From a virus: 64,000 nt of DNA. The first letter of the stretch is position 1. Each line of letters begins with the position of its first letter. The notes under the pieces were generated by a model, which saw nothing but the letters and a program-made list of their open reading frames with translations, ran no database searches and had not been told where the DNA came from. The DNA is taken from positions 32,001 to 96,000 of the IMG/VR virus record IMGVR_UViG_3300045995_000108; one strand, given 5' to 3'. The translations under genes were made by a program, and so were the position numbers. This document shows, piece by piece, positions 47,397 through 63,440 of this stretch.

Positions 47397-47408
47397 CAGG
47401 AGTTTATT

Positions 47409-50144
47409 ATTAGTTACGTAGACGGCATTCACGATAGGGCAAAAGACATAATCCACGTTGTCGAACGTGTGAATGGTGAGCGGGTATACAAAGAGTATCC
47501 CGCTAACTATGTCTTTTACCAAGACGACGCAAAGGGTAAGTTTCGCACTATCTTTGATACACCTGTAACCAGGTTCAGTTCAAGGTCTGGCAAAGAGTTT
47601 CAAAAGGAACTTGCCATGGCTAAGGGCTCTGGTAAGAAGGTATGGGAAAGCGACTTTAAGCCAATCTTCCGCTGCTTGGAAGAAAATTACCTCCATGCAG
47701 CATCCCCAAAGCTACACACAGCATTCTTCGACATTGAGGTGGATTTCCACCAAGAGAAAGGCTACTCTAAGCCTGAAGATCCGTTCAATGCTATTACTGC
47801 GTTCTCAATCTATCTTGACTGGTCAGACAAGCTAATTACTTTGGTATTGCCACCTAAGTCGTATAGCTGGGAAACTGCGGAAGAGATTTGCAACAAGTTT
47901 GAAAACTGTATCCTCTTTGACAGCGAAGAAGAAATGCTTAAAACATTCTACGCTATCATCGACGATGCAGACATCTTAAGCGGCTGGAACAGTGAGGGCT
48001 TCGATATTCCGTACACTGTTATGCGTACTATTCGCATACTGAGTAAGGACGATACTCGCGGCTTCTGCTTGTGGGGTCAACTACCCAAGCAACGTATGTT
48101 TGAACGTTATGGTACAGAGTCAATGACATTTGATACCGTGGGCCGTGTGCACATGGACTATATGCAACTGTATCGCAAGTACACCTACGAAGAACGTCAT
48201 TCCTATTCCCTAGATGCTATTGCTGAGTATGAGTTGGGTGAGCACAAGACCCCATACGAAGGAACACTAGACCAATTGTACAATCAAGACTTTGCGAAGT
48301 TTATTGAGTACAACCGCCAAGATACCATGTTGTTATCCAGGCTCGACACGAAGTTAAAATTCATCGACTTGGCGAACGAACTTGCACATGAAAACACTGT
48401 GCTATTACCAACCACGATGGGCGCGGTTGCAGTTACTGAGCAAGCTATCATTAACGATGCTCACAGTAGAGGTATGATTGTTCCTAACAGAAAGGCCAGA
48501 GATGAACAAGGTGAAACGCAAGCCGCAGGTGCCTATGTTGCTAATCCCAAGAAAGGGATTCACAAAGACATCGGAGCAATCGACATTAACTCCCTCTATC
48601 CCTCGGCTATTCGTGCCCTCAACATGGGACCAGAAACAGTCGTCGGACAACTCCGCCCAATACTGACGGATGCATACTTAAAGAATAAGATGCTGCCTGA
48701 GGTTAAGAACGGCAGGACTTATGTGGGGTGCAGCCTGTCAGAAGCGTGGGAAGGTTTGTTTGGTTCCCTAGAGTACACTGCCGTTATGGACATGGACCCA
48801 AGCGTAGAGATTACGATTGACTGGGAAGCTGACGGCAACAGCACTACACACAGAGCAGACGAAGTTTGGCGTGCTGTGTTTGAAGGTGGTCAACCTTGGC
48901 TCCTATCTGCGAACGGTACTATCTTCCGTTACGACAAGAAGGGCATTGTGCCTGGTTTGTTGGAACGTTGGTACTCTGAACGTAAGGAAATGCAGGCTAA
49001 GAAGAAAGCTGCGACAGAGAAGGAAGATATTGCTTTCTGGGATAAGCGTCAGCTAGTTAAGAAGATTAACTTGAACAGCTTGTATGGTGCTCTACTTAAC
49101 GGTGGTTGCAGGTTCTTTGACCATCGTATTGGACAGTCTACTACGCTATGTGGTCGCGTTATTGCACGTCACATGGATGCACACGTTAACGAGGCAATCA
49201 CTGGTGTTTATGATCACTTAGGTGACGCTGTAATCTACGGTGACACTGACTCTGTTTACTTCTCTGCTTGGAAGACGATTGAAGCAGATGTTAAAGCAGG
49301 CAATATGACATGGGACCGTGATACTTGTGTGCAACTGTACGACAAGATTGCAGACTCCGTTAACGACAGTTTCCCTACGTTCATGGAAAAAGCATTCCAT
49401 TGCCCACTTGAGATGGGCGGCATCATCAAGGGCGGTCGTGAACTGATTGCGTCTCAAGGATTGTTCATTACCAAGAAGCGTTACGCTGTATTGATTTTCG
49501 ATATGGAAGGTACACGCTACGACTTGATGGACGAAGCAACTGCTAAGAAGAAGGGTGTTATCCCGCACACAGGTAAAGTAAAAGCTATGGGCTTGGACTT
49601 GAAGCGTTCTGACACACCTAAGATCATGCAAGAGTTCTTGATGGAAATTCTGACTGACTTGCTTACTGACAAGGGCAAAGACCTTATCATTGACAAGATC
49701 AAGACGTTCAAGCAGAAGTTTGCTGATCTTCCAGCATGGGAAAAGGGCACACCAAAGCGTGTCAATAACTTGACAAGCTATGGGCAAAAGGAAAAAGACT
49801 CTACTACTGGTAAAGCTAACATGCCAGGTCACGTTCGCGCAGCTATCAACTATAACAGACTGAAGCGTTTGTATGGTGATAATGTGTCGCAAAGTATCGT
49901 GGACGGTATGAAAACTATTGTGTGCAAGCTAAAGGATAATCCATTGGGTTATACTAGCGTGGGTTATCCAACTGACTTGGCGCACGTACCGCAGTGGTTT
50001 AAAGAGTTACCATTCGACCAAGACAAAATGGAGATGACTATCGTGAACCAAAAGGTGGAAAACTTGTTGAGCGTACTTGACTGGGATATTACCGCAAGTA
50101 CGGACATTAACAGCACCTTTGAATCATTGTTTAGTTTTGACTAA
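47409..50144 (+). CDS. family B DNA polymerase (gp43-like), probable ATT start
   Basis: DIEV exonuclease I motif, DINSLYPS, KINLNSLYG, YGDTDS; SD AGGAG 6 nt before in-frame ATT. Confidence 0.95.
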   Translation: MSYVDGIHDRAKDIIHVVERVNGERVYKEYPANYVFYQDDAKGKFRTIFDTPVTRFSSRSGKEFQKELAMAKGSGKKVWESDFKPIFRCLEENYLHAASPKLHTAFFDIEVDFHQEKGYSKPEDPFNAITAFSIYLDWSDKLITLVLPPKSYSWETAEEICNKFENCILFDSEEEMLKTFYAIIDDADILSGWNSEGFDIPYTVMRTIRILSKDDTRGFCLWGQLPKQRMFERYGTESMTFDTVGRVHMDYMQLYRKYTYEERHSYSLDAIAEYELGEHKTPYEGTLDQLYNQDFAKFIEYNRQDTMLLSRLDTKLKFIDLANELAHENTVLLPTTMGAVAVTEQAIINDAHSRGMIVPNRKARDEQGETQAAGAYVANPKKGIHKDIGAIDINSLYPSAIRALNMGPETVVGQLRPILTDAYLKNKMLPEVKNGRTYVGCSLSEAWEGLFGSLEYTAVMDMDPSVEITIDWEADGNSTTHRADEVWRAVFEGGQPWLLSANGTIFRYDKKGIVPGLLERWYSERKEMQAKKKAATEKEDIAFWDKRQLVKKINLNSLYGALLNGGCRFFDHRIGQSTTLCGRVIARHMDAHVNEAITGVYDHLGDAVIYGDTDSVYFSAWKTIEADVKAGNMTWDRDTCVQLYDKIADSVNDSFPTFMEKAFHCPLEMGGIIKGGRELIASQGLFITKKRYAVLIFDMEGTRYDLMDEATAKKKGVIPHTGKVKAMGLDLKRSDTPKIMQEFLMEILTDLLTDKGKDLIIDKIKTFKQKFADLPAWEKGTPKRVNNLTSYGQKEKDSTTGKANMPGHVRAAINYNRLKRLYGDNVSQSIVDGMKTIVCKLKDNPLGYTSVGYPTDLAHVPQWFKELPFDQDKMEMTIVNQKVENLLSVLDWDITASTDINSTFESLFSFD

Positions 50145-58180: not shown

Positions 58181-58879
58181 ATGGATAACAGTAAAAATCT
58201 TTCTCAATTAATCCGCCGCAAAATGCAAGGAAGTGGTAAACGCTTTTGGGCAGGCGACAACATTTCTGAATTCGTTAGCGAAGATGCAAAACAACTTCTG
58301 ATTGACGAAGCTGCTGAAGCATTCGAAGGAGTGCTGGACGCTTTGTTAATTGATCGGGAGAATGATCCTAACAGCAAAGGCACTGCTCGTCGTCTTGCCA
58401 AAATGTACTACAACGAGATCATGTCTGGTCGTTACGATGCACCACCAGACTGCACTGCTTTCCCAAATGACAGCGATGACCGTTATGAAGGAATGTTGGT
58501 TGTTCGTTCAGAATTGAAGTCAATGTGCTCACACCACCACCAGCCCGTTTCTGGCACTGCGTACATTGGTATCATTGCTGCGCAAAAGCTAATTGGCTTG
58601 TCCAAGTATTCACGCATCGCGCAGTGGTGCGCATTGCGCGGCACATTGCAAGAAGAGTTATGCAACGACATCGCAAAAGAAATTGAAAAGGCAACTGGTT
58701 CTGAGAACATTGCAGTTTACATACAGGCCACACATGGATGCTGCGAAAACCGTGGAATAATGGCCCATTCGTCCCTAACACAAACAACTGTGCTCAAAGG
58801 ATCATTTAAAAGCGACCCAGGCACTAAGAAAGAGTTTTTCGACAACATTAATCTACAGCAACAGTTCGCTCCACGATAA
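58181..58879 (+). CDS. folE: GTP cyclohydrolase I
   Basis: SMCSHHH, IGLSK..R, LQEEL, HGC...RG. Confidence 0.95.
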   Translation: MDNSKNLSQLIRRKMQGSGKRFWAGDNISEFVSEDAKQLLIDEAAEAFEGVLDALLIDRENDPNSKGTARRLAKMYYNEIMSGRYDAPPDCTAFPNDSDDRYEGMLVVRSELKSMCSHHHQPVSGTAYIGIIAAQKLIGLSKYSRIAQWCALRGTLQEELCNDIAKEIEKATGSENIAVYIQATHGCCENRGIMAHSSLTQTTVLKGSFKSDPGTKKEFFDNINLQQQFAPR

Positions 58880-60595: not shown

Positions 60596-60997
60596 GTGAC
60601 TCGCATAAACTCTAATCTTGACCCAAAATCTCTCAAGCGTATGCATTTGGTTGCAGAGCTGCGAGAGATCACAATGGTCCCGGCTGCACTACGCCGTTCT
60701 TTGCGCACTATACAACCGCAAACCATCAAACAGAGTATTCCCAAGCAGTTTACTTTGAACGCAGGCCACGTTAAATTCTTTTACGATAAACTTGGATTCT
60801 TGCAAAAACGGTTCAACCGTTTAGCAGATGAAATGGTGCGCAGAGGTTATTCCCCTGATCGCAGTCGCATCAAAGCATTTGACGGATTTGACAGAATGTG
60901 GTATAATGATTGGGATAGCACAGACACTGATGACAAAATTGTTGTAGAACGCATTAACTTCCGTATCTCACAAAAACCACATTTATACAAGGATTAA
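60596..60997 (+). CDS. denV: pyrimidine-dimer DNA glycosylase (endonuclease V)
   Basis: MTRIN, HLVAELRE, FTLNAGHVKFFYDKL..L.KR...L..EM..RGY. Confidence 0.92.
   Translation: MTRINSNLDPKSLKRMHLVAELREITMVPAALRRSLRTIQPQTIKQSIPKQFTLNAGHVKFFYDKLGFLQKRFNRLADEMVRRGYSPDRSRIKAFDGFDRMWYNDWDSTDTDDKIVVERINFRISQKPHLYKD
60879..60907 (+). promoter_or_regulatory. near-consensus sigma70 promoter inside denV, facing queD
   Basis: TTGACG-17-TATAAT with extended -10 TG. Confidence 0.6.
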
Positions 60998-60998
60998 C

Positions 60999-61496
60999 AT
61001 GACACCCGTTTCTTACAAATTCACTTCCACAAAAGAATACATTGACGCTTTCCCATGTGCATATCGCCAATGGCGATCTGACTCGCACTGCAACCTGATT
61101 CACGGCTACTCGTTTAGCATGAAGTTCTACTTTGGCACAAACGACCTCGACGCACGTAACTGGGCAGCTGACTACGGTGGACTAAAAGAGCTTAAGAAGA
61201 TTTTGGAATCGCAATTTGACCATACTCTCATCGTGGCGCAAGATGATCCAGATATGGAAACATTCAAGTTGCTGCAAGACAAAGGCATGGCTAAGATTGT
61301 TGTGCTGCCTGCACTTGGTTGTGAAGCACTTGCTGACATGCTGTACAAGTATGTGAACGGTGTTTACATTCCGGAAATGTGGGGAGAAGGTGAAGCAAAG
61401 CGTCTTTGGTGCTACAAAGTGGAAGTTCGCGAGACACAAGCTAATATGGCTTATCGTGAGGGTCACCGTGAGTGGAACGAGGACTTGCTTGCATAA
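60999..61496 (+). CDS. queD: 6-carboxytetrahydropterin synthase
   Basis: CNLIHGYS, DYGGLK, FDHT, GCE, VRET. Confidence 0.9.
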   Translation: MTPVSYKFTSTKEYIDAFPCAYRQWRSDSHCNLIHGYSFSMKFYFGTNDLDARNWAADYGGLKELKKILESQFDHTLIVAQDDPDMETFKLLQDKGMAKIVVLPALGCEALADMLYKYVNGVYIPEMWGEGEAKRLWCYKVEVRETQANMAYREGHREWNEDLLA

Positions 61497-62329: not shown

Positions 62330-62557
62330 ATGAACGAACGAATTAAAGAACTTGCTGATCAGGCTTGGCAATATGCCGACAAATACAGCCACGATGGTGA
62401 TGGCAGACACGGCCACTTGTATCGTAATAAGTTCGCCGAGTTGATTGTTCAGGAATGTTGCAGCATTGTCTTGAATACTGAAATCGAGACAAATAATAAT
62501 GCAATGCTTCGTGGCGAAATTGCATCTAGGCTTGTGAAATTTATTAAGGAGAATTAA
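62330..62557 (+). CDS. hypothetical phage protein
   Basis: MNERIKELA...KFAELIVQEC. Confidence 0.6.
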   Translation: MNERIKELADQAWQYADKYSHDGDGRHGHLYRNKFAELIVQECCSIVLNTEIETNNNAMLRGEIASRLVKFIKEN

Positions 62558-62558
62558 A

Positions 62559-63440
62559 ATTTTTGGAACTAATGAAATTATCGGCAAGAAATTTTTCCGG
62601 GACGCACCAGCAAACAGCTTGTTTGTGACAAGTATGTTCTTCACGTTGCAAGGTGAAGGTCCATACGCTGGTATGCCTGCGTTATTCATCCGTCTTGCAA
62701 AGTGCAACCTTGATTGCAGCTTCTGTGACACATTCTTTGACGATGGCGATTGGATGACGTTTGACGAGATCGACGAGAAAGTGATTGAAACCATTTCCCG
62801 TTACTGGACTGATAAAAACGAAGAAGTGCCAGACTGGGCAATTAGCCACAAAACATTCGGCCCAGTACATCCTGGTGTTGTGCTTGTTATGACTGGTGGT
62901 GAACCATTACTCCAAGAAAACATCTCCCTGTTTATGACTGGTATGTTGCCAATCTTCAAAGCTGTGCAAGTCGAAAGCAACGGCATTCCTGACACCGTAG
63001 TACCAGCTGGCGTTACGCTGGTCTGTTCACCCAAGTGTATGGAAAAGAACGGTGTTGCTACTAAGTATTTCTCGCCATCCAAAACTATTTTGGACCGTGC
63101 AGACTGTCTCAAGTTTGTAATGAGCGCAGATGAAGGCAGTCCTTACCACAGTGTACCAGAATGGGCACACGAGTGGAAAGAACGGACCGGCAAAGATATC
63201 TATTGCAGCCCGATGAACATTTACAATTCTTTCCCGCAGCAAATCAAATTGCTACGAGCAGAGAAGGGTGTTATTACGATGGCAGAGCGTTCCACAGTTG
63301 ACGAGGTCATCTCGTGGTGGGAACCGGGATTGCTTGACATGGCAAAGAACGAAGCGAACCATCGTTATGTTGGGCAATACTGTATGCAGCATGGATTCAA
63401 GATGCAGATGCAGATGCACTTGTTTGCGAGTTTAGCATAA
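62559..63440 (+). CDS. queE: 7-carboxy-7-deazaguanine synthase (radical SAM), probable ATT start
   Basis: FFTLQGEG, FIRLAKCNLDCSFCDT, TGGEP, ESNG, CSPK, QMH; SD AGGAG 7 nt before in-frame ATT. Confidence 0.92.
   Translation: MFGTNEIIGKKFFRDAPANSLFVTSMFFTLQGEGPYAGMPALFIRLAKCNLDCSFCDTFFDDGDWMTFDEIDEKVIETISRYWTDKNEEVPDWAISHKTFGPVHPGVVLVMTGGEPLLQENISLFMTGMLPIFKAVQVESNGIPDTVVPAGVTLVCSPKCMEKNGVATKYFSPSKTILDRADCLKFVMSADEGSPYHSVPEWAHEWKERTGKDIYCSPMNIYNSFPQQIKLLRAEKGVITMAERSTVDEVISWWEPGLLDMAKNEANHRYVGQYCMQHGFKMQMQMHLFASLA

Follow-up and report, generated by a model that had tools for sequence, protein, structure and literature searches.

An AUU start codon is predicted for a QueE-like radical-SAM gene of an uncultured freshwater phage

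In the window, by which we mean the whole stretch of 64,000 nucleotides that was analysed, a QueE-like gene is most probably translated from an AUU codon at position 62559. We put the probability of this reading at roughly 85%; it would yield a product of 293 aa whose first residue is formylmethionine. A start at AUU had already been proposed for this gene in the initial annotation, and the proposal is upheld by the homologous position of the start in related loci, by a conserved N-terminal extension, by an initiation region that was kept between diverged relatives, and by the recurrence of the same letters in other sequencing runs. The phage, which is uncultured and of freshwater origin, has a T4-type family-B DNA polymerase; the window belongs to a 115-kb fragment of its genome, for which CheckV gives a completeness of 29%.

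Letters and reading frame at the start site

The coordinates of the features are collected in Table 1. The layout first described for the site, with AGGAG at 62547-62551, a 7-nt spacer and an in-frame ATT one base past the upstream stop, is confirmed by the letters. The match to the Shine-Dalgarno (SD) consensus can be extended to TAAGGAG (62545-62551), and the spacer (62552-62558) is A/U-rich. After the ATT come the codons TTT GGA ACT AAT GAA. The frame is closed on its 5' side by TGA at 62535-62537 and is open to TAA at 63438-63440; between 62538 and TTG 62619 it contains no ATG, GTG or TTG, and GTG 62625 and ATG 62634 are the next such codons. At these three codons the family has conserved residues, L21, V23 and M26. 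In the database, the window's gene is entered as P0004, a protein of 268 aa that was called from ATG 62634. Since the TAA of the upstream ORF is separated from the ATT by a single base, translational coupling is possible.

Two other candidates were considered at the site and rejected. An in-frame ATT at 62553 is located only 1 nt past the SD, and none of the homologues begins there. Fusion to the upstream ORF by a frameshift does not fit the relatives, in which the site carries its own start codon and the preceding ORFs are unrelated.

Table 1. Positions in the window of the QueE-like gene, its start region, its pathway neighbours and the polymerase start
Feature	Position	Strand	Remarks
Family-B DNA polymerase ATT start	47398..47411	+	AGGAG 47398-47402, 6-nt spacer, ATT 47409-47411
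GTP cyclohydrolase I (FolE)	58181-58879		Pathway neighbour, 5' of the QueE-like gene
PTPS/QueD gene	60999-61496		Pathway neighbour, 5' of the QueE-like gene
Upstream 75-aa ORF	62330..62557	+	No family match; stop TAA 62555-62557
Translation initiation region TAAGGAGAATTAAA	62545..62558	+	7-nt SD match and 7-nt A/U-rich spacer
ATT (AUU) start codon, predicted to be read as fMet	62559..62561	+	Homologous codon in 83 loci
Family-specific N-terminal extension of 20 codons	62559..62618	+	Absent from every canonical-start gene call
Downstream in-frame TTG 62619, GTG 62625, ATG 62634	62619..62636	+	Used by ORF finders; no SD
Radical-SAM motif CxxxCxxC (C49, C53, C56)	62703..62726	+	Iron-sulfur cluster motif
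Full QueE-like radical-SAM CDS	62559..63440	+	293 aa plus stop

Identity of the product and its pathway neighbourhood

The gene was named 'QueE-like' because its best scores against the NCBIfam QueE models are far under the curated cut-offs (63.3 bits against a cut-off of 300 for TIGR04349, and 57.8 against 200 for TIGR04322), so that the score stays below the equivalog threshold. The PDB chains matched by the 293-aa product are those of E. coli and Burkholderia QueE. An AlphaFold2 (AF2) model of the product was obtained with a pLDDT of 85.7, residues 1-10 being of low confidence, and QueE structures were its top Foldseek matches (6nhl, 5th5 and 4njg, with E-values of 1e-9 to 3e-7). In an alignment of 38 sequences, C49, C53 and C56 are invariant, and so are Q31, E33 and G34 of the QGEG strand, while G32 is nearly so.

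In two relatives, the CxxxCxxC motif of the QueE-like gene is interrupted by an in-frame insertion (L059:2350-3714 and L058:1873-3720). The L059 insert, of about 160 residues, is mini-intein-like and placed at the third cluster cysteine, with CSFC before it, FVPS and VVHN at its two ends, and CDTFF after it. The L058 insert is larger, and the ORF reaches 616 aa.

The genes for FolE and QueD located 5' of the QueE-like gene place it in a predicted phage 7-deazaguanine locus, in which it would act as a modified-DNA-base enzyme. A gene for a pyrimidine-dimer DNA glycosylase (Pfam Pyr_excise, T4 endonuclease V family) is found at 60596-60997, between the FolE block and QueD, and a DegT aminotransferase fragment and an NAD-dependent sugar epimerase are present alongside FolE, QueD and the QueE-like gene (window 53000-63440/contig). 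A Pfam search of the 115-kb fragment returned neither QueC nor a Pfam-recognisable, canonical TGT/DpdA; with 29% completeness, the whole phage may differ.

The start codon and the extension in related loci

The codon aligned with the window's ATT was collected for 83 loci, that is, the window and the 82 related loci for which DNA was fetched. It is ATG in 66 loci, TTG in 10, GTG in 3 and ATT in 4. A canonical start is thus present at the homologous codon in 79 of the 83, and an SD-like motif is found upstream in each locus. The family has about 1,700 members; among the 120 best database homologues, about 115 are 290 to 297 aa long and have their N-terminus, MFGTNE, exactly at the window's ATT (73 to 82% identity). 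It had been predicted that homologues would begin with MFG.NE, which is what they do; the opposite outcome, homologues devoid of the 20-aa extension, was looked for, and the extension turned out to be conserved across the family. Cultured phages share it as well: Sinorhizobium phage Phosso, Acidovorax phage ACP17, Dinoroseobacter phages R5C and R26L, and Pseudanabaena phage Pan1 encode members of the same family with the MFG.NE extension (42 to 56% identity), and their annotated starts are at the homologous codon. They differ from the window in that all of these starts are ATG. In the manner of AUU-initiated genes such as infC and pcnB, the window's gene has no canonical start at this homologous N-terminus, and AUU is in frame at that place.

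ATT is carried by three related loci (the window, L007 and L059) and by Rhizobium phage RHph_I1_18 (L002). Within the extension, F2, G3, N5, G9 and F13 are invariant in the 38-sequence alignment, whose members have 54 to 82% identity. In the first 20 codons, pairwise comparisons of the window, L007 and L059 gave 8 to 10 synonymous against 2 to 3 non-synonymous codon changes, and only 4 of the 20 third positions are common to all three. Such a predominance of synonymous change among ATT carriers is the signature of a translated region, and points to clear purifying selection on the extension in three diverged genomes. As judged from the alignments, conservation of the extension is a property of this QueE-like phage family.

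The initiation region and the origins of ATT

Upstream of the ATT, positions -14 to -1 (TAAGGAGAATTAAA) are identical (14/14) in the window, L007 and L059, and none of the 16 positions from -30 to -15 is shared. The upstream ORFs differ among the three, L059 having no long ORF there. The 7-nt SD match of these related ATT carriers compares with a maximum of 6 among 53 distinct ATG relatives. Likewise, the anti-SD duplex energy before the ATT is -9.2 kcal/mol, compared to -6.05 on average in the ATG relatives; the value of -9.2 is reached by only 2.3% of sampled window positions (background mean -3.5). A scan of viral contigs for the initiation region, in which the following codon was allowed to be ATT or ATG, matched only the two other ATT contigs, and the same scan of metagenome contigs gave no match. 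RNA folding around the start was no better than in shuffled sequences for the window (z 0.38), L007 and L059, and z was -1.5 for RHph_I1_18, so that a conserved hairpin was not established.

A maximum-likelihood tree groups the window, L007 and L059 in a clade of seven rows; the other four rows are ATG sequences with unrelated initiation regions, and RHph_I1_18 is placed far from this clade. We take this to mean that ATT originated at least twice, and that one of the origins was kept, initiation region included, over about 25% divergence at the protein level.

A second ATT start and the question of shared control

The initial annotation counted the QueE-like gene as a second ATT case, and the other one in the window is genuine: the family-B DNA polymerase starts at ATT 47409, the homologous position, where the N-terminus of its relatives (MSYVD...) aligns. 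Of 81 polymerase sites, 72 start with ATG at this codon and 3 with ATG offset by one codon; the others have TTG (3), ATT (2) or ATC (1), the start being ATT in L157 and ATC in L107. Overall, ATT or ATC is encountered at 4/83 QueE sites and 3/81 polymerase sites, or 4 to 5%. The proposed genome-wide search for SD-preceded ATT starts was carried out on the whole contig (about 190 ORFs), and the QueE-like gene and the polymerase were the only strong cases. A rate of 4 to 5% per site would by chance yield about two genes of this sort in some 190 ORFs.

The fact that these two genes alone combine a strong SD with ATT could suggest that their AUU starts form one device, dependent, as in infC, on the host IF3 level or translational state. 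The QueE ATT initiation region, unchanged while the neighbouring sequence diverged, fits such a device, since its preservation suggests selection for a weak-start design. However, the two ATTs are not co-inherited, the L007 contig having an ATT QueE gene together with an ATG polymerase, and most relatives have ATG at both genes. The chance rate is sufficient for two cases in one genome, and neither an IF3 gene (Pfam) nor a tRNA gene (aragorn) was found in the 115-kb fragment, although the fragment is 29% complete and the whole phage may differ. We therefore consider a single device unlikely. The L007 pairing and the sufficiency of chance likewise leave without support the idea that one non-canonical-start control governs both DNA synthesis and modified-base synthesis; co-regulation of QueE and polymerase is possible but unsupported. 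The contigs with an ATT or ATC polymerase were too short to contain the QueE gene.

A more specific proposal, which we hold to be quite improbable, sees in the invariant UAAGGAGAAUUAAA-AUU unit a throttle that was selected and responds to initiation factors; it would tie synthesis of the deazaguanine enzyme (and of the polymerase, via its similar AUU) to host IF3 or to the translational state in infection. If this were true, weak start codons would constitute a regulatory layer of giant freshwater phages.

Many of the polymerase loci L083-L162 have a small conserved hairpin-like element about 10 to 30 nt 5' of the polymerase start and just before the SD, for example GTAAGCTCAAAGTTAC. This element, which we take to resemble the translational operator of T4 gene 43, was not seen in the window.

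Initiation at a downstream codon

An alternative to the AUU start is that a mutation of the start codon moved initiation to TTG 62619, GTG 62625 or ATG 62634, in which case a core of 268 to 273 aa would be made and the 60 to 75 nt before it would be an untranslated relic. These are the codons picked by the gene callers, as in P0004, and their presence in frame, 20 to 25 codons downstream, sets the window apart from L059 and RHph_I1_18. Nor would the protein fold stand in the way. In the AF2 model, strand beta1 corresponds to residues 20-29; the TTG is codon 21, at the beginning of the strand, and the ATG is codon 26, inside it. The N-terminus of E. coli QueE is only some 4 to 5 residues ahead of the equivalent strand, so a TTG start would still yield a canonical QueE core, and what a downstream start would lose is the 20-residue extension of the phage family. 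The earlier remark that TTG 62619 has no SD and begins inside the first conserved strand was correct for the SD, and half correct for the strand.

The evidence from initiation signals and from the other ATT carriers nevertheless makes a downstream start very unlikely. None of the three codons is preceded by an SD, and the duplex energies before TTG 62619, GTG 62625 and ATG 62634 (-3.5, +0.9 and -3.5 kcal/mol) are at the background level. The supposed relic contains five invariant residues and is under clear purifying selection, as estimated from codon changes, in the three diverged ATT carriers. Moreover, L059 has CTG, GTA and CTC at the window's TTG, GTG and ATG codons, and a canonical start is reached in its frame only at codon 42, beyond the QGEG strand.

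In Rhizobium phage RHph_I1_18, no canonical start at all is available before the cluster motif. Its gene EVB91_067 (MN988519; L002:1446-2348) belongs to the same QueE-like family, adjoins QueD and FolE genes, and has the same SD-ATT layout as the window, with AGGAG, an 8-nt spacer and ATT TTT GGG one base past the upstream stop (predicted N-terminus (M)FGLNEK). The first canonical start is an ATG beyond CxxxCxxC, and it is from this ATG that the deposited CDS begins; as a consequence, the deposited CDS has no cluster motif, and it bears the name 'hypothetical protein'. An ATT 192 nt upstream of the deposited ATG appears to be the true start of the gene, whose product would be a QueE-like enzyme.

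Sequence error

Contigs of two other public runs, X6 (62523-62673) and X7 (62400-62637), cover the site with zero differing letters; they come from one riverine and one pond metagenome of different studies, neither of them flagged as a potential origin of the window's DNA, at low depth (2.5 and 5.7). Runs X2 and X5 gave no contigs, which may be due to filtering. Although the ATT is just one base away from the codon of most relatives, an error for ATG has a negligible probability, given that identical letters in two other runs exclude an assembly slip, that the sole matches to the initiation region in the scan allowing ATT or ATG were two other viral contigs with ATT, and that two further database proteins read ...RRIKIFGTN... 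through the site.

Comparison with known AUU starts

In E. coli infC, the gene for IF3, and in pcnB, the initiator tRNA is established to start translation at an AUU preceded by a strong SD. In E. coli reporters, AUU gives about 1/4 to 1/8 of the AUG output; values 6- to 8-fold under AUG were measured, and an infC-type junction a few bases past the preceding stop is 4-fold under its AUG version; an A/U-rich enhancer boosts AUU about 3-fold (PMC3592434). The window's gene is like infC in having its AUU behind an SD and a few bases past the preceding stop (UAA GGU AUU in infC, PMC3592434; UAA A AUU in the window), and from infC and pcnB one would expect an output several-fold under that of AUG. 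It is unlike infC, for which autoregulation by IF3 was demonstrated, and unlike both infC and pcnB in that it is a phage metabolic gene with an SD stronger than in its own ATG relatives.

It can also be compared with cvfC1 (AUU) and ccpN (AUA) of S. aureus, in which a weak start and an extended, conserved SD with fixed spacing are kept across relatives (PMC13009471). AUU and AUA starts behind extended SDs give about 10% of the AUG output in that species; Ribo-RET mapping and reporter tests located and confirmed the S. aureus sites (PMC13009471), whereas the window's start is predicted from comparative sequence. For phages, a literature search on AUU/ATT start codons found general papers only.

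The way in which the AUU start could operate can be sketched as follows. The 30S subunit would be positioned by the 7-nt SD UAAGGAG, 7 nt upstream of the AUU, and ribosomes that end the upstream ORF at UAA may re-initiate at the AUU one base further on. The AUU probably cuts QueE output several-fold relative to AUG, a loss that the strong SD and the A/U-rich spacer would partly offset. The window has the ingredients of the known AUU starts, namely SD strength, a spacer rich in A/U and a stop one base before, and we infer that the start is a working but throttled one.

Consequences for annotation and for the phage family

Because ATT is a rare and weak start, gene finders cut 20 to 25 conserved residues from the product in the window, and in RHph_I1_18 the whole iron-sulfur cluster motif is lost, with the result that an enzyme of the deazaguanine pathway is filed as a hypothetical protein in a deposited genome. 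RHph_I1_18, a phage of Rhizobium phaseoli, is cultured, and the start can be tested there. The mechanism of AUU initiation is already known; among phage genes with weak starts, whose number is growing, this one is a clean natural case. For the family itself, the comparisons indicate that AUU was maintained in one group of phages along with a ribosome-binding region of unusual strength and strict conservation, although the sequence around it diverged, and that it appears to have arisen again independently in another member of the family.
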